A stretch of 64,000 nt of DNA, taken from assembly GCA_045536535.1 (NCBI GenBank), contig JAZSNS010000031.1:64934-128933 (forward strand), in the 5' to 3' direction. The notes beneath the pieces are model-generated. The model was not told where the DNA came from, made no database searches, and saw only the letters and a list, made by a program, of their open reading frames with translations. Both the position numbers and the translations under genes were made by a program. Shown piece by piece: positions 44,424 to 63,601 of the stretch (positions are counted from its first letter, which is position 1; each line of letters opens with the position of its first letter). The stretch is from Eubacteriales bacterium. Lineage in GTDB: Bacteria > Bacillota > Clostridia > Oscillospirales > CAG-382.

Positions 44424-44578
44424 AATTATTTATCTTCCTCCGATTGATTTTTTTACTTATTATTCCCGGCACAGGATTAATTATCGGTTTTGGTTCATCA
44501 AAGCTTTCGTTGACAATTATCCGTCGGTATAATATAATAAAAGAGCAAAAAACGAGAACATAAAACCGAGGCATTCTG

Positions 44579-45253: not shown

Positions 45254-45358
45254 ATTTCAACAAAAGGAACGCCAAAACGTTCCTTTTTTATTGACTTTTT
45301 CGTTGATCTTATGGTAAAATAATTCGAACATACTTTTCGCGTTCAAGGAGAACGTTTT

Positions 45359-46279: not shown

Positions 46280-46327
46280 AACATACCAAACCCCGAAATT
46301 CGATTTTTCACAACGTTTGTATTACCC

Positions 46328-46357
46328 AAAAAGCCTTGCAAATGCAAGGCTTTTTTG
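46328..46357 (+). terminator. rho-independent terminator after the LysR gene
   Basis: AAAAA-GCCTTGC-aaat-GCAAGGC-TTTTTT. Confidence 0.7.
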
Positions 46358-46533
46358 TTCGCTACGGGGTATATCAATATATATATTATCGATATGCCAT
46401 TCTCATAATTCCCAATCGCTGTTTTTTTTGATAGAATTATGTCGACAAATTATGTTTTATATGTTATATATAAATATACCTAAAACACGCGCGACGTTCA
46501 CGCGCGAAAAGACACTTTTGACGGAAGGATGGC

Positions 46534-47169
46534 ATGAAACCGATGAAACAGGTATCGGTAATGAAGGCAACGCTCGGAAGGCTCCCTTTGTATCTCGACT
46601 ACTTGAAAAAGCTCGACACTGCTAAAAGCGAAAATATCTCTGCTACCGTTATCGCCAAAGCGCTCGGGCTCGGAGAGGTTCAGGTCAGAAAAGATCTGAG
46701 TTCCGTCAGCGGTGCGGGCAGACCCAAGTTGGGATATAAGACCGAAGCGTTGATCAAAAAAATCGAGGAAGTGCTCGGACGACATTCCGTCACCAAAGCG
46801 ATAATCGTCGGCGCTGGCAAGTTGGGCAACGCTTTGTTGGAATACAACGGGTTTTCAAATTACGGTTTGGAAATCTCCGCCGCGTTTGACATTGATGAAG
46901 AGAGAATCAGAAATTCCGTTTCAAACAAACTTGTTCTCCCTCTTGACAAACTTGAAGAATATTGCAAACAGGAAGGAATCTGCATCGGAATCATATCCGT
47001 ACCCGTTGCATCCGCTCAGGAAATTTGCGACAGACTTATAAATTGCGGCGTGAACGGCATTTGGAATTTTGCTCCCTGTCAACTTCACGTACCCGAGAGC
47101 GTCACGCTTCAACAGGAAAATCTCGCACTTTCGTTGGCTCATCTCAAATTGCACATGATGAATATATAG
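46534..47169 (+). CDS. rex: redox-sensing transcriptional repressor Rex
   Basis: ATLGRLPLYLDYL wHTH start and the NAD(H) Rossmann motif IIVGAGKLGNAL. Confidence 0.93.
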   Translation: MKPMKQVSVMKATLGRLPLYLDYLKKLDTAKSENISATVIAKALGLGEVQVRKDLSSVSGAGRPKLGYKTEALIKKIEEVLGRHSVTKAIIVGAGKLGNALLEYNGFSNYGLEISAAFDIDEERIRNSVSNKLVLPLDKLEEYCKQEGICIGIISVPVASAQEICDRLINCGVNGIWNFAPCQLHVPESVTLQQENLALSLAHLKLHMMNI

Positions 47170-47217
47170 CAAGGGATCCAATCGAAAAAAACGGTTGGCG
47201 GCTGAGGAGTAAATCGA

Positions 47218-48648
47218 ATGAGAAAATTTGATACAAAAGTACAATATCTTAAATACAAGGTGTTGCGCGAAGTTGCAAGGCAGGCTTGGGAAGGCACTTT
47301 GCTCGAAAAGTTGTTGGATATTCCTACAATGATCGTCCCCGGCAAGACGCCCACAATGCGTTGCTGTGTTTACAAAGAACGCGCAATACTTACAAAACGC
47401 ATCAAACTTGCAATGGGCGGCAACACCGAAAACAGCAACGTCATTGAAGTTATCGACATTGCGTGTGACGAATGCCCTTCCGCAGGTTACGTCGTTACCG
47501 ACTCCTGCCGAGGTTGCCTTGCACACCGTTGCGAAGACGTTTGCAAAAAAGGTGCGATCGCTTTTGACCATAATCACGTTGCACATATCGATAAATCGAA
47601 ATGCGTCGAGTGCGGGCAATGCGCGAAGGTCTGCCCCTTTACCGCGATCGTAAACCGAAAGCGCCCGTGTCAGAACGCATGTAAAGTCAAGGCGATCTCG
47701 ATAAACCAAAACAATGCCGCTTCGATCGACAGCAAAAAGTGTATCGCCTGCGGTGCATGTGTTTATCAATGTCCGTTCGGCGCTATTTCGGAAAAATCAT
47801 ATATTCTTGACGTCATCGACTTTATCAAGAAGAGCGACAACAACAAGAACTACAAAGTTTATGCGGTCGTTGCGCCCTCAATTTCGAGTCAATTCACCTA
47901 TGCAAAACTCGGTCAGATCGTCACCGGATTGAAGGAACTCGGTTTCCACACGGTTGTTGAAGCCGCGCTCGGCGCAGATATGATCGCGCTCGAAGAATCG
48001 AAGGAACTTGTTGAAAAGGGTTTCCTTACAAGTTCCTGTTGTCCTGCTTTTGTGACATACATCAGACAGAATTTCCCGAATCTCGTTCCTTTTATATCGC
48101 ACAACCCCTCGCCCATGACAGCGATTTCAAAACACATCAAGGGGCTTGACAAGGATTGCAAGGTCGTTTTCATCGGTCCCTGCACGGCAAAAAAGGCCGA
48201 GGCAAAACAAGAAAGCGTCAGTCCTTTCGTCGATTCGGTCATAACCTTTGAAGAACTTCAAGCGTTGTTTGACAGCCGTGACATCGATATCACCACACTC
48301 GAAGAGGGTTTGCTTGACAACGCCTCATACTTCGGACGGATTTTCGCGAGATGCGGCGGTCTTTCCGATGCGGTCGGGCAGGCCATCAAAGAACAAGGCA
48401 TTGAGGACTTTGTTCTGAAAGCATTTTCATGCGACGGTATCGAAGAATGCCGAGCGGCTTTGCTCAAAAAGAACAAAAACGCGCTTGACGTGAACTTTAT
48501 TGAAGGAATGGCATGTGTCGGCGGCTGCATCGGCGGTGCGGGTTGTTTGACACACGGCGAAAAAAACAAGTTACAGGTTGACAAATACGGAAAAGAAGCC
48601 ACAGACAAAACGATCAAAGACGCAGTCGGCGTTTTGAACATAAAATAA
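47218..48648 (+). CDS. [FeFe]-hydrogenase-like protein (H-cluster domain plus 2x[4Fe-4S] ferredoxin domain)
   Basis: Ferredoxin motifs CVECGQCAKVCP and CIACGACVYQCP. H-cluster-like motifs TSSCCPAF, GPCTAKKAE and EGMACVGGCIGG. No PAS or sensor domain. Confidence 0.85.
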   Translation: MRKFDTKVQYLKYKVLREVARQAWEGTLLEKLLDIPTMIVPGKTPTMRCCVYKERAILTKRIKLAMGGNTENSNVIEVIDIACDECPSAGYVVTDSCRGCLAHRCEDVCKKGAIAFDHNHVAHIDKSKCVECGQCAKVCPFTAIVNRKRPCQNACKVKAISINQNNAASIDSKKCIACGACVYQCPFGAISEKSYILDVIDFIKKSDNNKNYKVYAVVAPSISSQFTYAKLGQIVTGLKELGFHTVVEAALGADMIALEESKELVEKGFLTSSCCPAFVTYIRQNFPNLVPFISHNPSPMTAISKHIKGLDKDCKVVFIGPCTAKKAEAKQESVSPFVDSVITFEELQALFDSRDIDITTLEEGLLDNASYFGRIFARCGGLSDAVGQAIKEQGIEDFVLKAFSCDGIEECRAALLKKNKNALDVNFIEGMACVGGCIGGAGCLTHGEKNKLQVDKYGKEATDKTIKDAVGVLNIK

Positions 48649-48691
48649 AAATGTGTAAAAAAACAGTTTCTATATAAAAAAGGAGTTTATC

Positions 48692-49636
48692 ATGACTAAG
48701 ATCACTATCATCGGAACCGGCAGTGTTGGTTCCACCATAGCCTACACTCTCACAGTTCAGGGTATTGCGTCCGAAATCGTAATGATTGACATCAACGGCG
48801 AAAAAGCGATCGGCGAAGCACTTGACATCCGTCAAGGTACACCTTTTTGCCATCCCTGCACCATTTATGCAGGCAGTTATCCCGATGCGGCAGGTTCTGA
48901 CGTCGTTATCCTCACATCAGGTGTTGCAAGAAAGCCCGGTCAGTCCAGACTTGACCTCGCTCAGACCAACGTTAACATCACAAAGAGCATAATTCCCGAA
49001 ATCACCAAATATGCTCCCGATGCAACCTACGTTATCGTCAGCAACCCCGTTGATATTCTCACATATACTTTCTGTAAATATTCCGGGCTTCCGCACAACC
49101 GTATCATCGGTTCGGGTACTATCCTCGATACTTCAAGACTTCGTTCGAGAATCTCCGAATATTACCAGGTCAACCAGCAGAACGTTCATGCATACGTTCT
49201 CGGCGAACACGGCGACAGCAGTTTCATTCCTTGGTCGCTCGCAAACATCTCCAACGTTCCCGTTGAAAACTATAGTGATGCACTTCTTCACAACAACGGC
49301 GTTTATCCCAAACTCGACAAGGCAGAAGTCGAAGAATATGTCCGCAAGTCAGGCGCATCGGTCATCCAGCGCAAAGGCGCGACCTTCTATGCGGTTTCGA
49401 TATCGGTTTGCCGTATCGTCAAAGCGCTTCTTTCGGGCATTGATACAACACTTACCGTTTCGACCATGCTTGAAGGCGAATACGGAATCAATGACGTTTG
49501 TTTGAGTCTTCTCACTATCATCGGCAACAAGGCTGCAAACGGCAAGATCCTTCTTCCTCTTAACGATGAAGAAATCAAGGCCCTTAATCACAGCGCAGAT
49601 GAGTTGAAGAACGTTATCAACAACCTTCAATGGTAA
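48692..49636 (+). CDS. L-lactate/malate dehydrogenase family enzyme; Arg at specificity position suggests malate dehydrogenase
   Basis: IIGTGSVGS Rossmann motif, GEHGDS catalytic His and GSGTILDT. The substrate loop is SGVARKPGQSRLDL, where canonical LDHs read ..NQKPGETRLDL. Confidence 0.9.
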   Translation: MTKITIIGTGSVGSTIAYTLTVQGIASEIVMIDINGEKAIGEALDIRQGTPFCHPCTIYAGSYPDAAGSDVVILTSGVARKPGQSRLDLAQTNVNITKSIIPEITKYAPDATYVIVSNPVDILTYTFCKYSGLPHNRIIGSGTILDTSRLRSRISEYYQVNQQNVHAYVLGEHGDSSFIPWSLANISNVPVENYSDALLHNNGVYPKLDKAEVEEYVRKSGASVIQRKGATFYAVSISVCRIVKALLSGIDTTLTVSTMLEGEYGINDVCLSLLTIIGNKAANGKILLPLNDEEIKALNHSADELKNVINNLQW

Positions 49637-49667
49637 TTAATTTAGTGATATAGTGAGGTTATAAAAA

Positions 49668-51044
49668 ATGGAATACCGTATTGAACACGATTCTATGGGC
49701 GAAATGAAGGTCCCCGCAGACCGTCTTTGGGCTGCGCAAACTCAGAGAAGCCGCGAAAATTTCGAAATCGGCGTTGGCATTGAAACGATGCCCGCAGAAA
49801 TAATCCGCGCGTTCGGCGTTCTCAAACAGGCCGCCGCTGTTACCAACAACGCGCTCAAACCCGAAAAGATGACCGATGAAAAACTCACCGCCATCAAACA
49901 GGCTTGCGATGAAGTTATCGAAGGCAAACTTAACGGTCACTTCCCTCTTGTCGTATGGCAGACGGGTTCGGGCACTCAGTCGAACATGAACTCCAATGAG
50001 GTCATTGCGAACCGCGCAAATGAAATTCTCGGCAAAAAACTTTGCCACCCCAACGATGACGTTAACATGAGCCAATCCTCGAACGACACCTTCCCGACCG
50101 CAATGCACATCGCGGCGGTTATCGCTTTGGAAGACAAGCTCATTCCCGCAGTTGACGAACTTATTGCTACTTTTCTCCGTCTTGAAGTCGAAAACGAAGG
50201 TATCGTCAAGAGCGGCAGAACGCATCTCCAAGATGCAACCCCCATTAAGTTCAGTCAGGAAATCAGCGGTTGGAGATCCAGCCTTCAAAAAGACGTTGAA
50301 CTTATCAAACGTTCTGTCGAACCTTTGCGCGAACTTGCGCTCGGCGGCACTGCCGTCGGCACGGGGCTGAACGCTCCCAAAGGATTTGCCGAAAGAGTTG
50401 CCGAAGAAGTCAGCAACATCACGGGCAAGACCTTCATCACCGCAGAAAACAAGTTCCACGCACTTACCTCAAAAGATGAACTCGTTTTCGCGCACGGCGC
50501 TATCAAAGCTCTCGCTTGCGATATGATGAAGATCGCAAACGATATCCGTTGGCTCGCTTCCGGTCCGCGAGACGGGCTCGGAGAAATTTTCATCCCCGAA
50601 AACGAGCCCGGCTCCTCGATTATGCCCGGCAAGGTAAACCCGACTCAGTGCGAAGCGGTCACTATGGTTGCCGTTCAGGTTATGGGTAACGACGTTGCTG
50701 TCGGTATGGCGGCATCGCAGGGGAACTTTGAACTCAACGTATTTATGCCTGTTTGCATTTACAATTTCCTTCAATCCGCCAGACTTCTTGCAGAAGCAAT
50801 CGTTTCATTCAACAAGAACTGCGCTGTCGGTATTACCGCAAACAAAGAAAAAATGCATCACAATCTTCACAACTCGTTGATGCTCGTTACCGCGCTCAAT
50901 CCCTACATCGGTTATGAAAACGCGGCAAAAACCGCCAAAAAGGCGTTCAAAGACAATATCTCGCTCAAAGAAGCCTGCGTTGAACTCGGTTTCCTTACCG
51001 CAGAAAGATTTGACGAAGTTTTCCATCCCGAACAGATGGTTTAA
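49668..51044 (+). CDS. fumC: class II fumarate hydratase
   Basis: GSSIMPGKVNP signature, 458 aa. Confidence 0.96.
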   Translation: MEYRIEHDSMGEMKVPADRLWAAQTQRSRENFEIGVGIETMPAEIIRAFGVLKQAAAVTNNALKPEKMTDEKLTAIKQACDEVIEGKLNGHFPLVVWQTGSGTQSNMNSNEVIANRANEILGKKLCHPNDDVNMSQSSNDTFPTAMHIAAVIALEDKLIPAVDELIATFLRLEVENEGIVKSGRTHLQDATPIKFSQEISGWRSSLQKDVELIKRSVEPLRELALGGTAVGTGLNAPKGFAERVAEEVSNITGKTFITAENKFHALTSKDELVFAHGAIKALACDMMKIANDIRWLASGPRDGLGEIFIPENEPGSSIMPGKVNPTQCEAVTMVAVQVMGNDVAVGMAASQGNFELNVFMPVCIYNFLQSARLLAEAIVSFNKNCAVGITANKEKMHHNLHNSLMLVTALNPYIGYENAAKTAKKAFKDNISLKEACVELGFLTAERFDEVFHPEQMV

Positions 51045-51104
51045 AAACGGGTGTTTTTCAGAAAATAATTATTTCCTATGCAATTTTTACCGGAGGTATT
51101 ATAA

Positions 51105-51896
51105 ATGAAGTTCAGTTACTTCCCCGGGTGCACTCTCAAAAACAAAGCGAAAGATCTTGACATTTACGCAAGAAAATGCGCCGAAGTTTTGGGTGTTACT
51201 TTGGAAGAAATAGAAAACTGGCAATGTTGCGGCGGCGTTTTTACCACCGCAAGGAACGAAGTTGCCACAAAACTTTCCTCGGTTCGCGTTCTTAAAGCCG
51301 CGAAGGAGAAAGATCAAGCGTTGGTTACCGTTTGTTCGGCTTGCCACAACGTCGTTAAGCAGACAAACCATGCGATGCAGAACGACGCTGATTTTGCAAA
51401 CAAAGTGAACCTTTATATGAACGAAGGCGAATATGACGGTTCTACACAGGTTTACCATTATCTGGAAATGCTTCGCGACGTTATCGGTTTTGACAATCTT
51501 AAAGAAAAAGTTGTCAACCCGTTCAAAGGCAGAAAAATCGCGGCTTATTACGGATGTCTTCTTTTGAGGCCGAATTCGGTCATGAGAATGGACGATCCCG
51601 AAAACCCCAGCATCATTGAGGACCTTATCCGTGCTATCGGCGCAGAACCCGTTATTTACGGTTTCAGAAACGAATGTTGCGGCGGTTACGTCAGAATGGA
51701 GAGTCCCGAACTTGCCGTTAAAAAAAGCAACACGGTCAGCAACAGCGCGATCAACGCAGGAGCAGAAATGATCGTTACCGCATGTCCGCTTTGCAAATAC
51801 AACCTTGAAAAGAGCGGTTCTAAGATCCCCGTTGTTTATATCACCGAACTTCTTGCGGAAGCATTGGGAGTTAAGGAGGGCGACGATGAGCAATAA
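51105..51896 (+). CDS. hdrB: heterodisulfide-reductase subunit B-like protein (two CCG domains)
   Basis: YFPGCTL...WQCCGG...CSAC, and a second copy YYGCLL...ECCGG...CPLC. Confidence 0.88.
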   Translation: MKFSYFPGCTLKNKAKDLDIYARKCAEVLGVTLEEIENWQCCGGVFTTARNEVATKLSSVRVLKAAKEKDQALVTVCSACHNVVKQTNHAMQNDADFANKVNLYMNEGEYDGSTQVYHYLEMLRDVIGFDNLKEKVVNPFKGRKIAAYYGCLLLRPNSVMRMDDPENPSIIEDLIRAIGAEPVIYGFRNECCGGYVRMESPELAVKKSNTVSNSAINAGAEMIVTACPLCKYNLEKSGSKIPVVYITELLAEALGVKEGDDEQ

Positions 51897-52278
51897 AAAC
51901 AAATATCTTCAAGAAGAATTGCTCCGCATGAGCGGCGTCAACCCCAGAAAATGCATGCGTTGCGGCAAATGTTCGGCAACCTGTCCCGCTTATGACGAGA
52001 TGGAATATCATCCCCACCAATTTGTTTTCATGGTCGAAAGCGGCGATATCGAACCGTTGCTCGAATCGAAATCGCTTTACAGATGTCTCACCTGCTTTGC
52101 CTGTGTTGACAGATGTCCGCGCGGTGTTGAACCCGCAAAACTTGTCGAAGCGGTTCGTCTTGCTGCAATCCGCAAGCAGGGCAACAACCACATGACGGCA
52201 AACGACGTTCCCGAATTGATCGAAGACGATACGCCTCAACAGCTTATCGTTTCGGCATTCAGAAAATACACGAAGTAA
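51886..52278 (+). CDS. hdrC: heterodisulfide-reductase subunit C-like 2x[4Fe-4S] protein
   Basis: CMRCGKCSATCP and CLTCFACVDRCP. Start is at ATG 51886 after AAGGAGG, overlapping hdrB by 11 nt. The track start at 51805 lies inside hdrB. Confidence 0.88.
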   Translation: MSNKNKYLQEELLRMSGVNPRKCMRCGKCSATCPAYDEMEYHPHQFVFMVESGDIEPLLESKSLYRCLTCFACVDRCPRGVEPAKLVEAVRLAAIRKQGNNHMTANDVPELIEDDTPQQLIVSAFRKYTK

Positions 52279-52293
52279 GGAGGAAAAGGCAAA

Positions 52294-54288
52294 ATGCAAA
52301 GAATTGGTGTTTTTGTATGTTGGTGCGGCAGTAATATCGCAGGTACTGTTGACGTTAAAGCCGTTGCCGAAGCGCTCAAAAGCGAGCCCGGCGTTGTCTT
52401 TTCCACCAACTATCAGTACATGTGTTCCCAAGCAGGTCAGGAACTTATCAAGGACGCCATTAAAGAGCATAATCTCACCGGCGTTGTAGTTTGTTCCTGT
52501 TCGCCCCGTATGCACGAAGCGACGTTCCGTAAAACCGTCGCCGCCGCAGGGATCAACCCTTATATGCTTGAAATCGCAAATATCCGCGAGCAATGCTCCT
52601 GGGTACATAAAGATATGGCTGTCGGTACCGAAAAGGCAATTATCCTCGGTAAAGCGGCTATCGCCAAGGTCAACCTTAACACTCCGCTCACTCCCGGTGA
52701 ATCGCCCGTTACCAAACGTGCGCTTGTTATCGGTGGCGGTATTGCGGGCATTCAGACCGCGCTTGACATCGCAGACGCAGGTTTTGAAGTTGACATCGTT
52801 GAAAAGAAGCCGACGATCGGCGGCAAGATGGCACAACTTGATAAGACCTTCCCGACGCTCGACTGCGCGGCTTGTATCCTCACCCCGAAAATGGTTGACG
52901 TTGCGCAAAATGAAAAGATCCGCATCTTCTCTTACAGCGAAGTGGCAGAAGTCGGCGGATTCGTTGGCAACTTTGACGTTAAGATCAAGAAGAAGGCGCG
53001 TTACGTTAAGGAAGAGCTTTGCACAGGCTGCGGAGCTTGTACCGAAAAATGTCCTATGAAGAAGGTTCCCAACGACTTTAACCTTAATATGGACACAAAG
53101 CGCGCAATATACATTCCCTTTGCACAGGCGGTTCCGAACGTTGCTACTATCGACCCCGATTACTGCAACATGCTCAAAAACGGCAAATGCGGTGTTTGCG
53201 CAAAGGTCTGTACCGCAGGTGCGATCGATTACACGCAAAAAGACGAAATCATCGAAGAAAAATACGGCGCGATCGTCGTTGCTACCGGTTTCAATCCGAT
53301 CAGCATGGATAAATTCGATGAATTCGCATACAACCAATCAAAAGACGTTATAACCTCGCTTGAATTCGAACGTCTTACCAACGCGGCAGGTCCGACTGCG
53401 GGCAAGTTGCTCCGTCCCTCCGACGGAAAGCATCCGCACACGATCGTTTTCGTTCAATGCGTTGGCTCGCGTTGCGACGCATGTGCGGAAAAAGGCAAGG
53501 AATATTGCTCGAAGATCTGCTGTATGTACACCGCAAAACATGCGATGCTCACCAGAGACAAATATCCCGATACCGACGTTTACGTATTCTATATCGACGT
53601 CAGAACTCCCGGTAAGAATTTTGACGAGTTCTATCGCAGAGCGGTCGAAGAATACGGAGTGCATTATATCAAAGGCATGGTTGGCAAGGTCAGTCCCGAA
53701 GGCGACAAACTTCTCGTTCAGGCTTCGGATCTGCTTGCAGACAAACAGCTTAAAATCGAAGCAGACCTTGTTGTTCTTGCCGCCGCGATCGAGCCCGATA
53801 AATCGGCGCGTTCGCTCGCAACCATGCTTACCGCAAGCATGGACACCAACGACTTCTTCACCGAAGCGCACCCGAAACTCCGTCCCGTTGAAAGTCCGAC
53901 GGCAGGCGTTTTCCTTTCGGGTGCATGCCAAGGTCCTAAGGATATTCCCGAAACCGTTTCGCAGGCAGGCGCTGCCGCCGCGAAGGTTATCGGACTTCTT
54001 GCCAAAGACAAACTCATGGGCAACCCCTGTGTTGCGCATTCAGACGAAATGATGTGCAACGGTTGCTCGTCATGCGAAAAGGTTTGTCCTTACGGTGCTA
54101 TCACTTACGAAGACAAAGAATTCCGTATGCCCGACAGAACCACTTTGGTTCGACGTATTGCAAAAGTCAACCCCGCAGTTTGTCAGGGTTGCGGTTGCTG
54201 TACCGTTGCTTGTCCTTCGGGCGCGATGGATCTCAAAGGATTCGCGAGTGAACAAATCATTGCGGAGGTAGATGCGATATGCAAATGA
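52294..54288 (+). CDS. hdrA: heterodisulfide-reductase subunit A-like FAD/FeS flavoprotein
   Basis: 664 aa with an N-terminal VCWCGSNI Cys domain, the VIGGGIAGIQTALDIA FAD fold, and inserted and C-terminal ferredoxin motifs (CTGCGACTEKCP, CGVCAKVC, CNGCSSCEKVCP, CQGCGCCTVACP). Confidence 0.92.
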   Translation: MQRIGVFVCWCGSNIAGTVDVKAVAEALKSEPGVVFSTNYQYMCSQAGQELIKDAIKEHNLTGVVVCSCSPRMHEATFRKTVAAAGINPYMLEIANIREQCSWVHKDMAVGTEKAIILGKAAIAKVNLNTPLTPGESPVTKRALVIGGGIAGIQTALDIADAGFEVDIVEKKPTIGGKMAQLDKTFPTLDCAACILTPKMVDVAQNEKIRIFSYSEVAEVGGFVGNFDVKIKKKARYVKEELCTGCGACTEKCPMKKVPNDFNLNMDTKRAIYIPFAQAVPNVATIDPDYCNMLKNGKCGVCAKVCTAGAIDYTQKDEIIEEKYGAIVVATGFNPISMDKFDEFAYNQSKDVITSLEFERLTNAAGPTAGKLLRPSDGKHPHTIVFVQCVGSRCDACAEKGKEYCSKICCMYTAKHAMLTRDKYPDTDVYVFYIDVRTPGKNFDEFYRRAVEEYGVHYIKGMVGKVSPEGDKLLVQASDLLADKQLKIEADLVVLAAAIEPDKSARSLATMLTASMDTNDFFTEAHPKLRPVESPTAGVFLSGACQGPKDIPETVSQAGAAAAKVIGLLAKDKLMGNPCVAHSDEMMCNGCSSCEKVCPYGAITYEDKEFRMPDRTTLVRRIAKVNPAVCQGCGCCTVACPSGAMDLKGFASEQIIAEVDAICK

Positions 54289-54713
54289 AAGAATATAAAC
54301 CTTTGATCGTAGCATTTTGCTGCAACTGGTGTTCTTATGCAGGCGCAGACCTTGCAGGCAACAACAGATTGAATTACCCCGCAGAAGTCAAGATCATTCG
54401 TGTTCCCTGCTCTTGCAGAGTCAATCCGATGTTCATTCTTCGCGCTTTCCAGCGCGGCGCGGACGGTGTTATCCTTTGCGGTTGCCACCCCGGTGACTGT
54501 CATTATACATCCGGCAACTATTTCACAAGACGCAGAATGACGTTGCTTTTCTCGATGCTTGATTATCTCGGCATTGAAAGAGAACGCACCCGCGTTGAAT
54601 GGGTTTCCGCAGCAGAAGGCGCAAAGTTTGCCGCCACCATGAACGATTTTGCCGAAAAGGTTGCTGCCCTCGGCGAAAACAAGAGATTGGAGGACCTCAG
54701 ATGCAAAAAATAA
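54279..54713 (+). CDS. mvhD: MvhD/FlxD-like hydrogenase iron-sulfur subunit
   Basis: AFCCNWCSYAGAD...VPCSCRV...LCGCHPGDCHY. Overlaps hdrA by 10 nt. Confidence 0.9.
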   Translation: MQMKEYKPLIVAFCCNWCSYAGADLAGNNRLNYPAEVKIIRVPCSCRVNPMFILRAFQRGADGVILCGCHPGDCHYTSGNYFTRRRMTLLFSMLDYLGIERERTRVEWVSAAEGAKFAATMNDFAEKVAALGENKRLEDLRCKK

Positions 54714-55693
54714 CCCGTGACGTTTTGGTCGAAAAAGCGGTTTCCATGCTCGAAAGCGGTGACGTTTGCTGTGTTCTCGGTTGGAGAAAGGGCGAATTTG
54801 ATTACGACATCACTCCCGCCGTTTTCACAAGCAAGGAAGATATCGAATCAAATTTCGTATTCAACGACTTTTGCGGCGCAAACTTTTCAAAATATTTAAT
54901 TCAGAAAACCCGCAAGGCGGAAGGAAAGATTCTTGTTTTCCTCAAACCCTGCGATACTTACAGTTTTAACCAACTCCTTACCGAGCACCGTTTTGACCGC
55001 AATCTTGTTTATGCGGTCGGAATCCCCTGCGAAGGTATGGCGGACATAAACAAGGTCAAAGAAGTCGTCGGCGAAGGCATCTCCTCGATCGATTTTGACG
55101 GCGACAAGATTCTTGTTAACACCATTTACGATGACGAACCTCTTGCGGTGGAAGCCAAAAGCGTCATTGCTGAACGCTGCATAAACTGCAAGAGCAAAAA
55201 GCACGTCGCCTTTGACGAGCTTATCGGCGAAGACGGAGATGTTATCGAATCGGGCAGATTTGACGAAGTTGAAAAAATCGAAGCAATGACTCCCGACGAA
55301 AGATTTGCTTTCTGGCAGAACGAACTTTCAAAATGCATTCGTTGCAACGCATGCCGCGACGTTTGTCCCGCCTGCACATGTGAAAAGTGCGTTTTCGACA
55401 ACCCGAAATCGGGCGTTGAAAACAAAGCGGCGGCAAACAGTTTTGAAGAAAAAATGTTCCACATCATTCGCGCGTTCCACGTTGCAGGCCGTTGCACCGA
55501 CTGCGGCGAATGTTCAAGAGTCTGCCCTCAGCACATTCCGCTTCATTTGTTGAACAGAAAATTTATCAAAGATATTGATCTCTTTTACGGCGAATATCAA
55601 GCAGGTGAAGAAGTCGGCTCGCGCGCTCCGCTTGTTGACTACACCACCGATGATCTTGAACCCGGCGAAGTTTTTGAAGGGAGGGGCAACTGA
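54701..55693 (+). CDS. 4Fe-4S cluster protein (FlxC-like)
   Basis: 330 aa from ATG 54701 (GGAGGA upstream), overlapping mvhD by 13 nt. Motifs are CIRCNACRDVCPAC and CTDCGECSRVCP. The family call is by architecture and context only. Confidence 0.75.
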   Translation: MQKITRDVLVEKAVSMLESGDVCCVLGWRKGEFDYDITPAVFTSKEDIESNFVFNDFCGANFSKYLIQKTRKAEGKILVFLKPCDTYSFNQLLTEHRFDRNLVYAVGIPCEGMADINKVKEVVGEGISSIDFDGDKILVNTIYDDEPLAVEAKSVIAERCINCKSKKHVAFDELIGEDGDVIESGRFDEVEKIEAMTPDERFAFWQNELSKCIRCNACRDVCPACTCEKCVFDNPKSGVENKAAANSFEEKMFHIIRAFHVAGRCTDCGECSRVCPQHIPLHLLNRKFIKDIDLFYGEYQAGEEVGSRAPLVDYTTDDLEPGEVFEGRGN

Positions 55694-56712
55694 TGTTTAA
55701 ATGCTCGTTTGATTCCCTTGACGGCATTTTTGCGAAGATCGCGAACAACGCCACGCTTTATCTCCCCGCTGACAACGGCGACGGCAAAGCAGTTTTCACA
55801 AAATGGGAAAACGGAATCGTTTGGAGCAACGCTCTCAACACCGAAAGAAGCCCCAAGGACTTCTTCTTCCCTCAGTTTGAAAACATGATGGAATTCAAAG
55901 TTGAAGGCAAGTCCATCGAAATCAGCGACATTCGCAATGAATCCGAAGATTTCGTTGTGTTCGGCGTTCGTGCCTGCGACGTTAAAAGTTTTGACATTCT
56001 CGACAGAGTTTTCCTTGTTGACCCCTGTGACAGTTATTATGCAAATCGCAGAGAACACGGAATCATTGTTTCGGTTGCTTGCACAAAGCCTTCTGAAACC
56101 TGTTTCTGCAAAACCTTCGGCATTGACTGCACAAATCCCGGCGGCGATATCGCCGTTTGGAAGACAGAAAATGCTCTTTATTGGACTGCAAACACCGAAA
56201 AAGGCGAAAAGCTTTTGAATTCGCTCGGTCTTGAAGAATGCACCGACGATGCGGTCAACGCACAAAAAGAAAAGACCGAAAAGATCATGAAAAAACTTCC
56301 GCTTGCAAACCTCACAACCGACGGTTTCGGCGGAGGCAAGACCAAGGAACTTTTCGACCGTCCCGAATGGAAGACGCTTTCTGAATCCTGTCTCGGCTGC
56401 GGTACATGTACCTTTGTCTGCCCGACATGTCAATGCTATGACATCAAGGATTTCAACACCGGCAAGGGTATCGTCCGTTTCCGTTGCTGGGACTCCTGCA
56501 TGTATTCCGATTTCACAAAAATGGCGCACGGCAACAACAGATTGAGTCAGGTCGAACGTTTCCGTCAGCGTTTCATGCACAAACTCGTTTATTATCCCGA
56601 AAATAACGAGGGTATCTTCGGTTGTGTCGGTTGCGGCAGATGCCTGGCTAAATGCCCTATTTCGATGAACATTGTTAAAGTTATGAAGACGATCGGAGGT
56701 AACGAGGAATGA
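55693..56712 (+). CDS. 4Fe-4S cluster protein, AsrA/HydB(sulfhydrogenase beta)/FlxB-like
   Basis: FGVRACD, ETCFCKTFG, CLGCGTCTFVCPTC and CVGCGRCLAKCP. TGATG overlap with the upstream gene. Confidence 0.8.
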   Translation: MFKCSFDSLDGIFAKIANNATLYLPADNGDGKAVFTKWENGIVWSNALNTERSPKDFFFPQFENMMEFKVEGKSIEISDIRNESEDFVVFGVRACDVKSFDILDRVFLVDPCDSYYANRREHGIIVSVACTKPSETCFCKTFGIDCTNPGGDIAVWKTENALYWTANTEKGEKLLNSLGLEECTDDAVNAQKEKTEKIMKKLPLANLTTDGFGGGKTKELFDRPEWKTLSESCLGCGTCTFVCPTCQCYDIKDFNTGKGIVRFRCWDSCMYSDFTKMAHGNNRLSQVERFRQRFMHKLVYYPENNEGIFGCVGCGRCLAKCPISMNIVKVMKTIGGNEE

Positions 56713-57542
56713 ACAATCGCAGAGAACCTTTGATCCCTGTTGTCGGCGTTATTACCGACGTTCGTATTGATACCCCCGACATCAAGACCTTCCGCGTTGT
56801 TACTCCCGACGGAAAGAAGGCGTTTGACCACATGCCCGGTCAGTGCGCGATGCTTTCTATCCCCGGTGTCGGCGAAGCGATGTTTTCGATCACATCGTCC
56901 CCGACAAACACCGAATTTATGGAATTTTCTATTAAAAAATGCGGTTGCGTTACCGATTGGCTCCACCAAGCAGAAGTCGGTCAGCAATTAACCATTCGCG
57001 GTCCTTACGGCAAGGCGTTTCCCGTTGACGATGCGTTCGTCGGCAAGAACCTCCTGTTCGTTGCGGGAGGCGTCGGTCTTGCTCCGCTTCGCTCGGTAAT
57101 CAATTATTGCCGTTATTATCGCGACAGATACGGCAAGATCGACATTGTTTACGGTTCGAGAAGCAAAGACGATCTTCTTCAATACAAAGAAATTATTGAA
57201 GAATGGGCCACCGATGAAGGTGTTAACGTTCATCTCACCATCGACCGTGAACAGGAAGGTTGGGACGGACACGTTGGTTTTGTGCCCAACTATGTTAAGG
57301 AACTCGGTTTTGACACCGACAAGACCGCAATACTTTGCGGACCTCCTATTATGATCAAGTTCACTCTTGACGGACTTCAAACGCTCGGTTTTGAGAAAAC
57401 TCAGGTTTACACAACGCTTGAACTCAAAATGAAATGCGCTATCGGCAAATGCGGCAGATGCAACGTCGGCTCGAAATACGTCTGCAAAGACGGCCCGGTT
57501 TTCCGATTTGACGAACTTGATGAACTTCCGAGCGAATATTGA
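56709..57542 (+). CDS. FAD/NAD(P)H-binding 2Fe-2S oxidoreductase, AsrB/HydG/PyrK/FlxA-like
   Basis: FNR-like fold (RPFSITS-like FSITSSP, LLFVAGGVGLAPLRS) and C-terminal CAIGKCGRC...C. ATGA overlap with the upstream gene. Confidence 0.87.
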   Translation: MNNRREPLIPVVGVITDVRIDTPDIKTFRVVTPDGKKAFDHMPGQCAMLSIPGVGEAMFSITSSPTNTEFMEFSIKKCGCVTDWLHQAEVGQQLTIRGPYGKAFPVDDAFVGKNLLFVAGGVGLAPLRSVINYCRYYRDRYGKIDIVYGSRSKDDLLQYKEIIEEWATDEGVNVHLTIDREQEGWDGHVGFVPNYVKELGFDTDKTAILCGPPIMIKFTLDGLQTLGFEKTQVYTTLELKMKCAIGKCGRCNVGSKYVCKDGPVFRFDELDELPSEY

Positions 57543-57592
57543 TAACTTCGCTCTCGCTCGAAAACCTACAAGGTAAAAAGGAGATTTATTTA

Positions 57593-58267
57593 ATGGAAAA
57601 TATGGTTAACATTTTTCTGTTCGGCAAAAAGTATTCGGTGCCGGACAACCTGACAATTATGAATGCTATGGAATACGCAGGCTATCAACTCGTCAGAGGT
57701 TGCGGATGCAGAAACGGTTTCTGCGGTGCTTGCGCTACCATTTACAGAATCAAAGGCGACAAGGAACTCAAATCCTGTCTCGCTTGCCAAACCAAAGTTG
57801 AAGATAACATGTATATCGCCACCCTGCCCTTCTTCCCTCTCGTTAAGCAGGTTTACGATATCAACACCGTTTCGATCAACGAGACCGTCATGATGCAACT
57901 TTACCCCGAAATCTATGCCTGCATCGGATGCAACGCCTGCACCAAGGCTTGTACGCAGGAGCTTAACGTTATGCAATACATTGCTTATGCTCAGCGCGGC
58001 GATTTCGAAAAATGCGCAGAAGAATCGTTCGACTGCGTAATGTGCGGCGTTTGCTCGTCACGTTGCCCCGCAGGTATTTCGCATCCGCAGGTTGCGATGC
58101 TTGCACGCAGAATCAACGGCAAATATCTCGCACCCAAATGTGATCATCTTGATGAACGCGTTCAGGAGATCAAAGACGGAACCTTTGCTGAACTCATTGA
58201 AGCACTTATGCAAAAGCCTATCGATGAGATCAAGGAACTTTACAACAACCGCGATATTGAGAAATAA
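57593..58267 (+). CDS. SdhB/FrdB-like iron-sulfur protein (2Fe-2S plus two Cys-cluster motifs)
   Basis: 224 aa from ATG 57593 (AAGGAG upstream). Motifs are CGCRNGFCGACA...C, CIGCNACTKAC and CVMCGVCSSRCP. Confidence 0.82.
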   Translation: MENMVNIFLFGKKYSVPDNLTIMNAMEYAGYQLVRGCGCRNGFCGACATIYRIKGDKELKSCLACQTKVEDNMYIATLPFFPLVKQVYDINTVSINETVMMQLYPEIYACIGCNACTKACTQELNVMQYIAYAQRGDFEKCAEESFDCVMCGVCSSRCPAGISHPQVAMLARRINGKYLAPKCDHLDERVQEIKDGTFAELIEALMQKPIDEIKELYNNRDIEK

Positions 58268-58281
58268 GGAGGGTAAAAGAG

Positions 58282-59886
58282 ATGTATTCCGAAAAATTTC
58301 AGAAATCTTTGGCTGCTGTCGAGGCCGCAAGAGAGAAAAACATTGCTCTTGAACCCGCACGCATGACCGCTCAGCAGAAAACGGACCTTCTTGCCGAATA
58401 TCATCCCGACTACAAACAAGATGAATTCGAAATTCTTGCAATAGGTCCCAACAAGGGCGACAAGGTTCCGAAAGAACTTGCCGCAACGCTTCAAGCACAC
58501 AGCCGCGTTTGCGCGGAATGTATTGACCTTGAAAATCCCGATTATGACGTTGACGTTCTCGTTATCGGCGGCGGCGGCGCAGGTTCTTCTGCCGCTATCG
58601 AAGCGCACGAGGCAGGCGCAAACGTTATGATCGTCACAAAGCTCCGTATCGGTGACGCAAACACAATGATGGCGGAAGGCGGTATTCAGGCGGCTGATAA
58701 GCCCAACGACTCGCCTGCAATTCACTTTGTCGACGCTTTTGGCGGCGGCCACTTTGCCGCAAAACGCGAACTTCTTCAAAAACTCGTTTGTGATGCTCCC
58801 GAGGCGATCCAATGGTTAAGCGAACTCGGCGTTGAGTTCGACAAGACCGAAGACGGCACGATGGTCACAACTCACGGCGGCGGCACTTCGAGAAAGCGTA
58901 TGCACGCCGCAAAGGACTATTCGGGAGCGGAAATCATGAGAACGCTCCGCGACGAGGTTCTCAACAGAAATATTCCCGTTGTTGACTTTACTTCCGCGAT
59001 CGAGCTCATTCTCGATGAAAACGGCAATGCCGCAGGAGCGGTTCTTCTTAACATGGAAACCAAGGAGATCCTTATTGCGAAGGCTAAAACCGTTATCATC
59101 GCCACCGGTGGTGCAGGCAGAATGCATTATCAAGGATTCCCTACCTCGAACCACTACGGCGCAACGGCTGACGGTCTTGTTCTCGGTTACAGAGCAGGCG
59201 CGAAACTTCTCTATGCCGAAACGCTTCAATACCACCCGACGGGTGCGGCTTATCCCGAACAGATCTTCGGCGCGCTTGTTACCGAAAAGGTTCGTTCTCT
59301 CGGTGCAAAACTCGTTAACGTAAACGGCGAAGTTTTCATGCATCCGCTTGAAACCCGCGACGTTTCCGCTGCTTCCATTATCCGTGAATGTTCGACTCGC
59401 GGTAACGGCGTTGAAACCGATCAGGGCAAAGCCGTTTGGCTTGATACCCCGATGATCGAAGCGATCGGCGGCGAAGGAACTATTGAAAAGAGAATTCCCG
59501 CGATGATGAGAATGTTCGGTAAATACGGCATCGACATCCGCAAAGAGCCGATTCTTGTTTACCCGACGCTTCACTATCAGAACGGCGGTCTTGACATCAC
59601 TCCCGACGGCATGACCACCAACGTTAAGAACCTCTTTGTCGCAGGCGAAGCAGTCGGCGGTATTCACGGCAAGAACAGACTTATGGGCAATTCGCTGCTT
59701 GACATCATCGTATTCGGCAGAATCGCAGGTAAATCGGCAGGCGCGGCTTGCAAGGACATCACCGTTGGCAAACTTACGCTTGACCACGTTGCAAAGTTCG
59801 AGAAGGAAATTGCAGACGCAGGCATCGTTACAGATACCGTATCTCCTAAACTCCTCCCCGATTACACCAGAAAGGTTAACGGTTAA
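58282..59886 (+). CDS. succinate dehydrogenase/fumarate reductase-family flavoprotein, soluble type
   Basis: VLVIGGGGAGSSAA FAD fold, LQYHPTG, TEKVRSLG, PTLHYQNGG and GEAVGGIHGKNRLMGNSLLD. The N-terminal extension of about 88 aa lies before the Rossmann fold. Confidence 0.88.
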   Translation: MYSEKFQKSLAAVEAAREKNIALEPARMTAQQKTDLLAEYHPDYKQDEFEILAIGPNKGDKVPKELAATLQAHSRVCAECIDLENPDYDVDVLVIGGGGAGSSAAIEAHEAGANVMIVTKLRIGDANTMMAEGGIQAADKPNDSPAIHFVDAFGGGHFAAKRELLQKLVCDAPEAIQWLSELGVEFDKTEDGTMVTTHGGGTSRKRMHAAKDYSGAEIMRTLRDEVLNRNIPVVDFTSAIELILDENGNAAGAVLLNMETKEILIAKAKTVIIATGGAGRMHYQGFPTSNHYGATADGLVLGYRAGAKLLYAETLQYHPTGAAYPEQIFGALVTEKVRSLGAKLVNVNGEVFMHPLETRDVSAASIIRECSTRGNGVETDQGKAVWLDTPMIEAIGGEGTIEKRIPAMMRMFGKYGIDIRKEPILVYPTLHYQNGGLDITPDGMTTNVKNLFVAGEAVGGIHGKNRLMGNSLLDIIVFGRIAGKSAGAACKDITVGKLTLDHVAKFEKEIADAGIVTDTVSPKLLPDYTRKVNG

Positions 59887-59906
59887 CGGAGGGTTAAGAG
59901 ATTTAA

Positions 59907-61295
59907 ATGAAAAACAAAAACACTAATATCAAGAAGGCAATCGGCATTGTTCTGGCATTGTTAATAGTTGCCGGTGTTGCCGCTTGGTGTTGTTACAACG
60001 CTCTTGCGGACAACGCAGACGGGGTTGAAAGCACCTTTAACTTCTCGTCGACCTTCGTGCTCTTCACTCTTGTATTTGTCATTGTTGCTTTCGGTTATCT
60101 TTTGGGTTCGATCGAAATCAAAGGCGTTTCTCTCGGCACGGCAGGCGTTTTCCTTATCGCCATTCTTGTCGGTTGGCTTTGTACCCTTAACTTCGGAGAC
60201 GTTCCGCTTTTGGGCGCATTCCACATTGAGGGCGAAAGCGATGCGATCGTTACCACATTCAAATCCACCATTCAGAACATCGGTCTTATCCTTTTCGTCG
60301 GTGCGGTTGGATTTATCGCAGGTCCTAACTTCTTCAAGAACCTCGCGAAAAACTTCAAGACCTACATCCTTTTAGGTTTCGTCATCATCCTTTCGGGCAC
60401 TGCCGTTGCAGTCATCTGCTCGCTTCTCACGCCCGAATTCGGGCCTGAATATTGGTCGGGTGTTCTTTCGGGTGCTTTGACCTCTACCCCCGGTTTTTCT
60501 GCCGCAAAAGATGCGGTTTTGGGTCACCCCGATCAGGACAGTCTTGAAGCGCTTATCACTCTCGGTCATGCGGTTGCATATCCGTTCGGCGTTATCGGGG
60601 TTGTGCTTTTTGTGCAGCTTATCCCCAAAATACTCAAAGCGGATATGAACAAAGAAGTTGAACTTCTTAGAGCAGGCGCTTCCGAAGAAAGAAAGCTGCC
60701 CGACGGTCTTTTCAAATGCGATGAACTCGGACTTATGTCATTTGCACTCGCTATTGTTTCCGGACTTATTCTCGGTTCGATAACAATTCCGCTTTCTGCC
60801 GAAGGATATGCCGAGGGCGCACCTTGTTTCAGTTTGGGAACAACAGGCGGTGTTCTTATCATGTGCTTGATTTTCGGTCATTTCGGTCATTTCGGAAAAC
60901 TTTCGCTTGAAATCCCCGAAAAGACGCTTAAAGTTTGCAGAGAGTTAGGTCTTATGCTCTTCCTCCTCGGCGCAGGTTTTCACGGCGGCGTTGCGTTGGT
61001 CGAGCAGGTCAGCGAATATGGCGCGAGCATCGTTGTTTGGGGACTCCTCGGCGGTGCGGTCATGACGATTGCACCGATGATCGTCGGACTTTTGCTTGCA
61101 AAACTTCTTATGAAGCTCCCCTTGCTCAACTCGCTCGGTTCGATCACAGGCGGTATGACATCAACCCCCGCTTTGGGCGCGCTCATCAAAACGGCAAAAA
61201 CCGATGACGTTGCGGCGGCTTATGCTTCGACATATCCCATTGCACTTGTGCTTATCGTTCTTGCTTGTCAGTTGATGATAACATTGATGAACTAA
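59907..61295 (+). CDS. AAE-family (aspartate:alanine exchanger / YidE-YbjL-SucE-like) transporter
   Basis: 462 aa in two homologous hydrophobic halves. The first-half motif GYLLGSIEIKGVSLGTAGVF is typical of the Asp-Al_Ex domain as I recall it. Confidence 0.75.
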   Translation: MKNKNTNIKKAIGIVLALLIVAGVAAWCCYNALADNADGVESTFNFSSTFVLFTLVFVIVAFGYLLGSIEIKGVSLGTAGVFLIAILVGWLCTLNFGDVPLLGAFHIEGESDAIVTTFKSTIQNIGLILFVGAVGFIAGPNFFKNLAKNFKTYILLGFVIILSGTAVAVICSLLTPEFGPEYWSGVLSGALTSTPGFSAAKDAVLGHPDQDSLEALITLGHAVAYPFGVIGVVLFVQLIPKILKADMNKEVELLRAGASEERKLPDGLFKCDELGLMSFALAIVSGLILGSITIPLSAEGYAEGAPCFSLGTTGGVLIMCLIFGHFGHFGKLSLEIPEKTLKVCRELGLMLFLLGAGFHGGVALVEQVSEYGASIVVWGLLGGAVMTIAPMIVGLLLAKLLMKLPLLNSLGSITGGMTSTPALGALIKTAKTDDVAAAYASTYPIALVLIVLACQLMITLMN

Positions 61296-61296
61296 A

Positions 61297-61331
61297 CAAA
61301 AAAACTCGGTTCGATGTGAACCGAGTTTTTT
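61297..61331. terminator. bidirectional rho-independent terminator
   Basis: AAAAAAA-CTCGGTTC-gatgt-GAACCGAG-TTTTTT between convergent genes. Confidence 0.8.
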
Positions 61332-61358
61332 ATTTGTTATTTACTTTTCAATTCTTAA

Positions 61359-62030: not shown

Positions 62031-62207
62031 AGTAAAATCCTCCTAAAATTTGAAATATTTGCTATTGCTTTTTTATTATAACACATATATAATTTATTAC
62101 AAGTGTTTTTAATAAAGAAGTCAATAAAAATTTTTGACGATTCTGCATTATATAATACAACTTTTGTTGAATTTTTTCAAAAACAGATTCAGAAAGGTTC
62201 AGAACCG

Positions 62208-63461: not shown

Positions 63462-63601
63462 CTCGCAACGGTCTACAAAAAGTTTAAGCTGTAAGGCGAA
63501 TACCCCGACGGAAACGGATTATCGCGGAAAGCGAAAGATATGTTATTGAACGTTTAATTGTTACAGAAATCAAAAACGACCAGTTTTAAGGAGATAAACA
63601 A

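Follow-up and report, generated by a model that had tools for sequence, protein, structure and literature searches.

The window analysed here is a stretch of 64,000 nucleotides from contig JAZSNS010000031.1 of an uncultured ruminant-gut member of the Clostridia, represented by a 1.55-Mb metagenome-assembled genome (MAG) that is 86% complete (G000). Between positions 46534 and 61295 it carries an island of 14 genes, all on the + strand and with no competing gene on the opposite strand, whose families we assigned with Pfam and NCBIfam profiles (Table 1). They follow one another as rex, hydB, mdh, fumC, hdrBCA, mvhD/flxD, flxCBA, frdB, frdA and a gene for a transporter of the aspartate:alanine exchanger (AAE) family, and all are single-copy in the genome. 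An earlier note on this DNA had given the same gene order and families, and profile matches and motifs bear it out for all 14 genes at the coordinates it named. The note had also read the island as a self-contained branch from oxaloacetate through malate and fumarate to succinate and its export, with Rex and a hydrogenase at its head. It had recognized the Hdr/Flx/Frd-like block, which is indeed present, and had left its role unexplained. We propose that this block is central to the system and acts as a putative flavin-based electron-bifurcating NADH:fumarate/ferredoxin oxidoreductase, and that the island is most likely a single transcription unit for NADH-driven succinate fermentation.

Table 1. 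Genes of the island, followed by its flanking gene and transcription signals, with positions in the window.
Feature	Position	Strand	Evidence or remark
rex, redox-sensing (NADH/NAD+) transcriptional repressor	46534..47169	+	NF003994, 253.9 bits against a cut-off of 130
hydB, monomeric group-B [FeFe]-hydrogenase	47218..48648	+	TIGR04105, 559 bits against 450, full length
mdh, NAD-dependent malate dehydrogenase of the L-LDH clade	48692..49636	+	Ldh_1_N/C, Arg102
fumC, class II fumarate hydratase	49668..51044	+	TIGR00979, 716.6 bits against 664.75
hdrB-like	51105..51896	+	Pfam CCG x2; both motifs (Cx31CC...CxxC) intact
hdrC-like	51886..52278	+	two [4Fe-4S] motifs; TIGR03290, NF041779, Fer4
hdrA flavoprotein, candidate electron-bifurcation site	52294..54288	+	NF040770 HdrA2, 787 bits
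mvhD/flxD, [2Fe-2S] connector	54279..54713	+	Pfam FlpD, E 5e-55
flxC-like iron-sulfur (poly-ferredoxin)	54701..55693	+	Fer4_8, Fer4_9; colinear orthologues
flxB-like iron-sulfur (poly-ferredoxin)	55693..56712	+	Fer4_22, E 9e-30; NF040829, TIGR02910
flxA, NAD(P)H-binding FAD/[2Fe-2S] entry subunit	56709..57542	+	NAD_binding_1, FAD_binding_6, DHODB_Fe-S_bind
frdB/sdhB-like	57593..58267	+	Fer2_4, Fer2, Fer4_9, TfrB N-terminal part
frdA/tfrA-like fumarate reductase flavoprotein	58282..59886	+	FAD_binding_2, E 1e-68
AAE-family (AspT/YidE/YbjL/SucE-type) transporter	59907..61295	+	Asp-Al_Ex (PF06826) x2, E 3e-64
lysR, LysR-type regulator gene	45359..46279	+	Pfam HTH_1, E 2e-17; own terminator downstream
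Terminator after lysR	46328-46355		perfect 13-bp-stem inverted repeat, then T-run
25-bp palindrome ATATCAATAtatatatTATCGATAT, candidate operator	46371..46395		just upstream of the -35
Candidate island promoter	46409..46437	+	-35 TTCCCA, 17-nt spacer, extended -10 TG-n-TAGAAT; promoter scan
Bidirectional intrinsic terminator closing the island, after the transporter	61299..61331		15-bp stem, T-runs on both strands

The island is compact. Neighbouring genes overlap or lie no more than 60 nucleotides apart, the gaps between rex and hydB (48 nucleotides) and between hydB and mdh (43 nucleotides) hold no terminator, and no convincing internal terminator was seen anywhere between the terminators that follow lysR and the transporter gene. 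Both hexamers of the candidate promoter are conserved across the alignment of the genus, and a transcript running from this promoter through all 14 genes would fit the layout. The list of open reading frames over-extends three starts: hdrC appears to begin at ATG 51886, the position from which its orthologues align, rather than at 51805, flxC at ATG 54701 rather than 54599, and frdB at ATG 57593, which gives the 224-amino-acid product on record. An Rfam search of positions 44000-64000 matched zero families.

Seven adjacent genes, hdrBCA, mvhD/flxD and flxCBA, reproduce the architecture of FlxABCD-HdrABC, with two CCG motifs in HdrB and an HdrA of full length. The latter matches the solved bifurcating HdrA 5odc_A with 693 bits, residues 3-661 aligning to 5-648. 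The HdrB-like protein scores 125 bits against the methanogen HdrB chains 8rvv_B and 5odc_B and also resembles the SdhE subunit of type-E Sdh/Mfr enzymes, the FlxB-like protein resembles the sulfhydrogenase beta subunit and AsrA, and FlxA is matched in addition by NF006220 and TIGR02911.

The two genes that follow encode the fumarate-reducing part. The FrdB-like subunit has a 2Fe-2S motif and two four-cysteine CxxCxxCxxxC motifs, and a 3Fe-4S-type motif is absent. FrdA has Asn in place of the His that binds FAD covalently, a conserved N-terminal extension of 88 amino acids and a shortened C-terminus, and its orthologues align from residue 1. Its motifs HPTG, VTEKVR, TRDVS, TLHYQNGG and GKNRLMGNS supply the equivalents of E. 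coli His232, Thr244/Glu245, Arg287, His355 and Arg390. L-aspartate oxidase shares these residues, so that they alone do not exclude this enzyme; we rejected the assignment on context, namely the iron-sulfur partner subunit and the strict linkage to fumC, mdh and the hdr genes. The pair differs from a membrane quinol:fumarate reductase (FrdABCD) in that the second FrdB motif reads CxxCxxCxxxCP and an anchor gene is absent. It differs from TfrAB as well: the best NCBIfam match of FrdA, TfrA NF004900, reaches 343.8 bits and stays under the cut-off of 718, the FrdB-like protein covers positions 19-152 of TfrB only, and the CCG part is a separate gene. Transmembrane-like segments number zero in every enzyme subunit and 11 in the transporter. 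Together with the four-cysteine motifs of FrdB, this means that there is no quinone site or anchor; the succinate branch is soluble, and the cytoplasmic location ascribed to it in the earlier note holds.

Upstream of the block, the product of mdh is about 50% identical to canonical L-lactate dehydrogenases (L-LDHs), which make up all of its top PDB matches. It passes the curated L-LDH cut-offs (NF000824, TIGR01771), keeps the LDH-type Arg173/His188 and misses the curated models for malate dehydrogenase (MDH), one of them just (280.9 against 283) and the other with 221 against 352. However, its substrate loop ARKPGQSR (in GVARKPGQSR), aligned to AQKPGETR of 4m1q, places Arg at LDH position 102, where an L-LDH has Gln. 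The MDH residues Arg102, Arg109, Asp168, Arg171 and His195 are all present, and Arg102 recurs in 40 of 40 operon-linked mdh orthologues with a readable motif, which confirms the MDH-type Arg that the earlier note had seen in an enzyme of the LDH family. In 1988 Wilks et al. reportedly switched an LDH to oxaloacetate with the change Q102R, and by this classic result Arg102 predicts specificity for oxaloacetate. Because the gene passes the L-LDH cut-offs, automatic annotation would misname it as LDH, and MAG reconstructions will then predict lactate rather than succinate. It is the sole Ldh_1_N (LDH/MDH) gene of the genome. The product of fumC carries Lyase_1 and FumaraseC_C domains and a GSSIMPGKVNP loop that fits the GSSxMPxKxN signature, and it falls within its curated family.

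The rest of the genome is in keeping with this carbon route. It encodes an ATP-dependent phosphoenolpyruvate (PEP) carboxykinase whose gene is divided between the ends of two contigs (C31:14055-14948 and C2:12625-13272), so that C31 and C2 are probably neighbours in the intact genome, and PFOR is encoded on another contig. We did not find a GTP-dependent PEP carboxykinase, Rnf, the Ech/complex-I 49-kDa subunit or methylmalonyl-CoA mutase in the genome; Rnf was not found either in G013 and G171, near-complete carriers of the operon from the same genus. With a PEP carboxykinase present and methylmalonyl-CoA mutase not found, succinate is a plausible end product. These two points, the conserved synteny, the invariant Arg102, the single Ldh_1_N gene and a gene order that matches a published succinate operon (see below) together support the path from oxaloacetate to succinate export drawn in the earlier note. 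Its term self-contained was too strong: the carbon path does lie within the island, but PEP carboxykinase, PFOR and a second, HydABC-type hydrogenase are encoded on other contigs. The last of these is a complete group-A3 cluster with a HydS-like gene on contig C18, where the HydABC operon (C18:352-8594, with NuoE/NuoF-like partners) is interleaved with genes for the HydS-like protein, two histidine-kinase-type ATPase-fold proteins and a PHP-domain protein.

The block is conserved well beyond this genome. Our comparative sample comprised 201 genomes from 30 families of the order, and 52 species-level loci of related species had enough upstream flank to be compared. The nine genes hdrBCA-mvhD-flxCBA-frdBA are colinear in 51 of the 52 loci, so the arrangement is not due to chance; fumC is added in 49 loci and mdh in 45. 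A synteny comparison of this kind had been suggested in the earlier note, and it speaks for the grouping made there. The flavoprotein occurs in 54 of the 201 genomes (27%), spread over 15 of the 30 families. More widely, its relatives are found in more than 587 species-level genomes and fall into more than 8000 clusters at 90% identity, which the sources name just 'FAD-dependent oxidoreductase'. The nearest named relatives are ruminant-gut Clostridia MAGs, and orthologues at 82-87% identity occur in Congzhengia, Ructibacterium and the cultured Yeguia hominis NSJ-40.

The hydrogenase encoded by hydB has two 4Fe-4S ferredoxin-like domains and an H-domain in which the H-cluster motifs TSSCCP, GPCTAKK and EGMACVGGCIGG and all four cluster cysteines are present; orthologues at 64-85% identity occur in 59 of the 201 genomes. 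Group-B [FeFe]-hydrogenases of gut Bacteroides are active ferredoxin-dependent H2 producers, fed by ferredoxin that PFOR has reduced (PMC12578642). Same-strand pairs with rex 0-8 kb upstream of hydB occur in about 25 genomes of the order, and many of these genomes lack FrdA (for example G195, G034, G196, G027, G191, G042 and G204). Sister species have the order lysR-rex-hydS-hydB-mdh, where the product of hydS is a sensory hydrogenase of group C that combines Fe_hyd_lg_C, FeS and PAS domains, and a genome of another family (G039) has frdA-rex-hydS-SpoIIE/PP2C-hydB. Sites at which hydS, or hydS with PP2C, stands between rex and hydB are L096:3494-5176, L100:5559-6380 and L104:3456-6318. By comparison the window has lost hydS and PP2C, leaving the short gap between rex and hydB, and the head of the island is a trimmed copy of a separate rex-hydS-PP2C-hydB module.

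The module has joined the operon in several lineages: hydB is found within about 5 kb of it in seven genomes from four families, in some upstream and in others downstream. Rnf is absent in six of the seven, as against five of the roughly 23 reductase-bearing genomes with hydB elsewhere; overall, 167 of the 201 genomes have it. Thus Rnf and an operon-linked hydrogenase look like alternative outlets for ferredoxin, in counts that are weakened because three of the seven genomes share one genus. Within the genus of the window, a strong Rnf match is limited to G006, G009 and G011, and none of the three has the reductase.

The Rex protein consists of the Pfam domains Put_DNA-bind_N and CoA_binding, carries the Rossmann motif GAGKLG and falls within the curated family; rex is the sole copy in the genome, and no paralogue was found. 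The position of the gene varies among relatives. In 10 of 48 loci it directly follows frdA or the transporter gene; in this genus it stands before the operon, and lysR is its conserved upstream neighbour (lysR-rex occurs in three same-genus loci, L096, L099 and L100). We searched for Rex operators with the consensus TTGTTAAnnnnTTAACAA or TTGTGAAnnnnTTCACAA, two variants, allowing up to 3 mismatches. Relatives with rex elsewhere have boxes of 13/14 at 34-388 nucleotides upstream of mdh in 7 of 45 loci, and boxes of at least 12/14 precede mdh in 10 of 45 relatives as against 1.2% of random background windows. In addition, one near-consensus box lies about 100 nucleotides upstream of hydB in G127. 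Such boxes in front of mdh or hydB place the operon in the Rex regulon of at least some members of the clade.

In the window itself, a 25-bp palindrome stands between the lysR terminator and the -35. It is near-invariant in five of five aligned loci of the genus, and one perfect copy exists in the whole genome. We regard it as a candidate operator of either LysR or an atypical Rex; where it lies, with a conserved lysR gene next to it, would favour a LysR-type site. It was rejected as a genome-wide operator, with its single perfect copy; a copy with 2 mismatches before hydC, at C18:8644 and about 50 nucleotides upstream of the first gene of the HydABC operon, is suggestive and lies within what chance allows in AT-rich DNA. 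Another candidate, TGTCGACA near the -10, was rejected as an operator because its own palindrome is unconserved in the genus alignment.

The transporter that closes the island has the TIGR01625 duplication domain (141 bits against 72), and AspT proteins are its only solved relatives (E 2e-16). It resembles AspT of Tetragenococcus (PDB 8y1x) in its two Asp-Al_Ex membrane repeats and, putatively, in that family's range of dicarboxylate substrates. SucE of Corynebacterium is likewise an AAE transporter with a dicarboxylate substrate. In contrast to both, the island protein is 462 amino acids long with no match to the central TrkA_C domains, and it misses all curated equivalog cut-offs. An AAE gene lies downstream of frdA in 29 of 48 loci, and by family and position the protein is a candidate succinate exporter or dicarboxylate exchanger. 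Among same-genus genomes in which FrdA is 95-98% identical, the AAE proteins are only about 78-83% or about 47-50% identical (window against L002-L006), so that two divergent AAE types have been swapped at one site. In the same comparison the reductase core is much better conserved than rex (61-68%) and hydB (83-85%).

These observations can be joined into one mechanism. Oxaloacetate would be made outside the island by the ATP-dependent PEP carboxykinase, reduced to malate by the LDH-derived malate dehydrogenase and dehydrated to fumarate by FumC. A soluble nine-subunit FlxABCD-HdrABC-FrdAB assembly would then reduce fumarate to succinate, which the AAE transporter would export. Electrons from NADH would enter at FlxA and pass through FlxB, FlxC and FlxD to the flavin of HdrA, where the pairs would be split. 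The high-potential branch would lead through HdrC, HdrB and FrdB to the FAD of FrdA and on to fumarate, and the low-potential branch would reduce ferredoxin, for a net reaction of 2 NADH + fumarate + Fd(ox) -> 2 NAD+ + succinate + Fd(red). The standard potentials (E0') are about -320 mV for NADH, about +33 mV for fumarate/succinate and about -400 to -500 mV for ferredoxin. With these values the bifurcation would be exergonic, by the same logic as in Bcd/Etf. Since Rnf and Ech were not detected, a hydrogenase is the exit left for the ferredoxin; the group-B enzyme encoded alongside is the one that suggests itself, and it would vent the ferredoxin as H2. Rex, from the first gene, would couple expression to NADH/NAD+ and turn the unit on once NADH builds up, and sister species would add the HydS H2 sensor at the same place. 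For this NADH-driven succinate fermentation unit, with a bifurcating Flx-Hdr-Frd complex and ferredoxin vented through HydB, we estimate a probability of about 0.55.

A wider form of the proposal is that in gut and rumen Clostridia lacking Rnf and Ech the island serves as a fumarate-driven converter of NADH to H2 with a co-transcribed hydrogenase. We put this forward tentatively, as a possibility that we would not bet on. If it is true, three NADH would be consumed and one H2 released per oxaloacetate, NADH could be disposed of even under high H2 pressure, control would lie with Rex and, in sister species, also with the HydS H2 sensor, and the output of H2 would be linked to that of succinate across a large group of gut bacteria not yet in culture.

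Several observations weigh against the proposed unit, most of them at its hydrogenase end. In G005 and G013, two of the closest relatives, mdh follows rex without an intervening hydrogenase, and only about 7 of the roughly 30 genomes with both have hydB next to the operon. Of the 54 reductase-bearing genomes, 24 have no hydB orthologue, and 72% of them have Rnf; hydB is also found in many genomes without the reductase. Such scattered co-occurrence implies that coupling to the hydrogenase is facultative. The maturases are also missing: HydE, HydF and HydG all stayed below cut-off in the 86%-complete genome of the window and were not found in G013, G171 and G155 of the same genus, which are 96-98% complete. 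All three are present in G008, and tblastn searches for them with the G008 proteins returned generic GTPases only. HydG is absent from 35 of the 59 hydB-bearing genomes of the order, and five of these 35 are 100% complete. With no HydEFG found, the activity of the hydrogenase is uncertain. As to regulation, the searches of the island and of the region upstream of rex gave no canonical Rex operator, the best intergenic matches reaching at most 11/14; the one 11/14 match nearby, at 61334, sits behind the terminator and fits chance expectation. Genome-wide, there are three 13/14 matches, none before an obvious redox gene, and we did not use them. Finally, we found no biochemical demonstration of a bifurcating fumarate reductase in the literature that could be searched, the enzyme of Pseudoclostridium thermosuccinogenes included. 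Of the redox head described in the earlier note, then, the genes stand, but they look like a separate module, with no canonical operator in the island and no HydEFG found in the genome. Alongside this, the genome has three hydrogenase-domain genes.

The points on linkage raise the question of whether the head and the operon are merely juxtaposed. An independent rex-hydB module could serve ferredoxin reduced by PFOR, which the genome encodes, and share at most a promoter with the operon. The many rex-hydB pairs in genomes without FrdA and the low frequency of adjacency agree with this, as do the sister species that keep hydS between the two genes and the cluster of G039, which is of the kind found in the Ruminococcus albus hydrogenase regulon (PMC6776011). 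However, the module joined the operon independently in four families, upstream or downstream, Rnf is missing from nearly all of the genomes concerned, the two gaps that link rex, hydB and mdh are short and free of terminators, and boxes for Rex precede mdh itself in relatives. On balance we consider mere juxtaposition unlikely, although it is the alternative to be taken most seriously. Another alternative is that the hydrogenase-like protein makes no H2: without HydEFG it would have no [2Fe] subcluster and either show no activity or serve just as an iron-sulfur redox protein, while another route re-oxidized the ferredoxin. The failure of the maturase searches in four genomes of this genus, the return of nothing but GTPases by tblastn and the lack of HydG in 100% complete genomes of the order all favour this. 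Yet the protein retains every H-cluster ligand and the Cys of the proton path, the identity of 64-85% across families points to purifying selection, and the genome keeps two further [FeFe]-hydrogenase genes, the full HydABC set included; besides, the genome of the window is only 86% complete. In archaea and some eukaryotes, organisms that lack maturases are documented to have active [FeFe]-hydrogenases (PMC11216029), and a corresponding report for bacteria was not found in the literature. We judge this alternative as a whole improbable.

Two further alternatives concern the reductase. Flx-Hdr and FrdAB could be two enzymes, the first reducing a low-molecular-weight or protein disulfide, as has been proposed with DsrC for Desulfovibrio, and the second re-oxidizing the thiol in the manner of methanogen Tfr, so that bifurcation would run through a diffusible thiol shuttle. 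HdrB retains both CCG motifs of the disulfide-reducing site, TfrA is the best NCBIfam match of the flavoprotein, TfrB fuses the FrdB-like and CCG parts that are separate genes in the island, and electron transfer by Flx-Hdr 'to ferredoxin (and thiols)' has been written of (PMC7282089). No DsrC-like or other thiol-carrier gene is seen in the island, though, FrdB has no CCG domain of its own for thiol oxidation, and the strict colinearity of nine genes in all but one locus favours one assembly over a shuttle, which we hold to be quite improbable. The whole path could also run in the oxidative direction, from succinate through fumarate and malate to oxaloacetate, with electrons from succinate and reduced ferredoxin confurcated onto NAD+. 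Every step is reversible in principle, AAE transporters can be exchangers, and confurcation would, in theory, overcome the uphill oxidation of succinate. But the non-covalent FAD and the low-potential-type four-cysteine clusters of FrdB are typical of fumarate reducers, as established for Sdh/Frd enzymes, the homologous operon belongs to a succinate producer (PMC7282089), and the host has a small fermentative genome with PEP carboxykinase and PFOR in which a respiratory chain was not found. The oxidative direction is therefore the least credible of these possibilities, and we give it very little weight beside the reductive unit proposed above.

The core operon is not new, since it has been published as a hypothesis for P. 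thermosuccinogenes, a proven succinate producer. The 'succinate operon' of that organism (CDQ83_RS03365-03315) was proposed to couple NADH-dependent fumarate reduction to the reduction of ferredoxin (PMC7282089, where a 2019 preprint by Koendjbiharie & van Kranenburg is cited). By its published description it shares with the island, in the same order and number, the fumarate hydratase, seven Flx-Hdr genes, two Frd genes and a putative succinate transporter. However, it starts at the fumarate hydratase, whereas rex, hydB and mdh are joined in front here, and its host is a 4-5-Mb thermophile with Rnf and Ech rather than an uncultured gut bacterium without detectable copies of either. FlxABCD-HdrABC of Desulfovibrio vulgaris, as Ramos et al. 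2015 are reported in PMC7282089 and PMC6315080, has the same seven-subunit domain make-up. According to those accounts its proposed acceptor is the DsrC disulfide and its genes lie beside an alcohol dehydrogenase gene, in contrast to the FrdAB acceptor and the order hdrBCA-flxDCBA proposed here. Genes for TfrAB are interleaved with flxABCD-hdrABC in the reductive tricarboxylic acid clusters of tubeworm symbionts (PMC6315080). TfrAB of Methanothermobacter, as the same paper describes it from Heim et al. 1998, is likewise soluble and quinone-independent and combines an FrdB-like module with an HdrB-type CCG module. In that account TfrB is fused, unlike the separate genes of the island, and the island FrdA has the 88-residue N-terminus and shortened C-terminus described above. 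Coenzymes M and B, to our knowledge, do not exist in bacteria.

Comparable regulatory and hydrogenase modules are also known. Like the head of the island, the rex/HydS/PP2C/hydrogenase cluster of R. albus 7 (PMC6776011) encodes a ferredoxin-dependent [FeFe]-hydrogenase together with redox- and H2-sensing regulators. That hydrogenase is of group A1 and is linked to adhE and ethanol, whereas the island has a group-B enzyme, has lost hydS and PP2C and encodes a succinate pathway. The cluster is reportedly the one treated by Zheng et al. in 2014. In Clostridium acetobutylicum, rex is reported to lie upstream of crt-bcd-etfBA-hbd with a documented Rex box (Wietzke & Bahl 2012). There as here, Rex would head an operon for a bifurcating reductase of a C=C bond that consumes NADH and reduces ferredoxin; the differences are that Bcd/Etf and butyryl-CoA take the place of Flx-Hdr-Frd and succinate, and that a Rex box was not found in the island. 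The hydrogenase of gut Bacteroides belongs to the same group, whose model TIGR04105 the island protein passes. Its host, however, reduces fumarate with a cytochrome-containing membrane enzyme from which the hydrogenase is not fed (PMC12578642), while the ferredoxin donors proposed here include the fumarate reductase, and maturases were not found here.

What is new is the fusion of the operon to rex-hydB and an LDH-derived mdh, its breadth across Clostridia of the gut and rumen, the association of an adjacent hydrogenase with the absence of Rnf, and the missing maturases. In gut and rumen communities, succinate and H2 serve as two key currencies of cross-feeding. A soluble, ferredoxin-reducing fumarate reductase would provide a route that is free of quinones and membranes and that had previously been proposed from the genome of one thermophile only. 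That the operon is repeatedly joined to a Rex/hydrogenase module, mostly where Rnf is missing, yields a concrete prediction on NADH balancing in fermenters with small genomes. With mdh passing LDH models and the reductase named 'FAD-dependent oxidoreductase', metabolic reconstructions from MAGs will miss this pathway.

Beyond the island, a gene for a MIP-family channel (aquaporin or glycerol facilitator; 61359-62030 on the - strand) converges on it and shares the bidirectional terminator. A channel gene of the same family also adjoins the transporter gene in locus L013.

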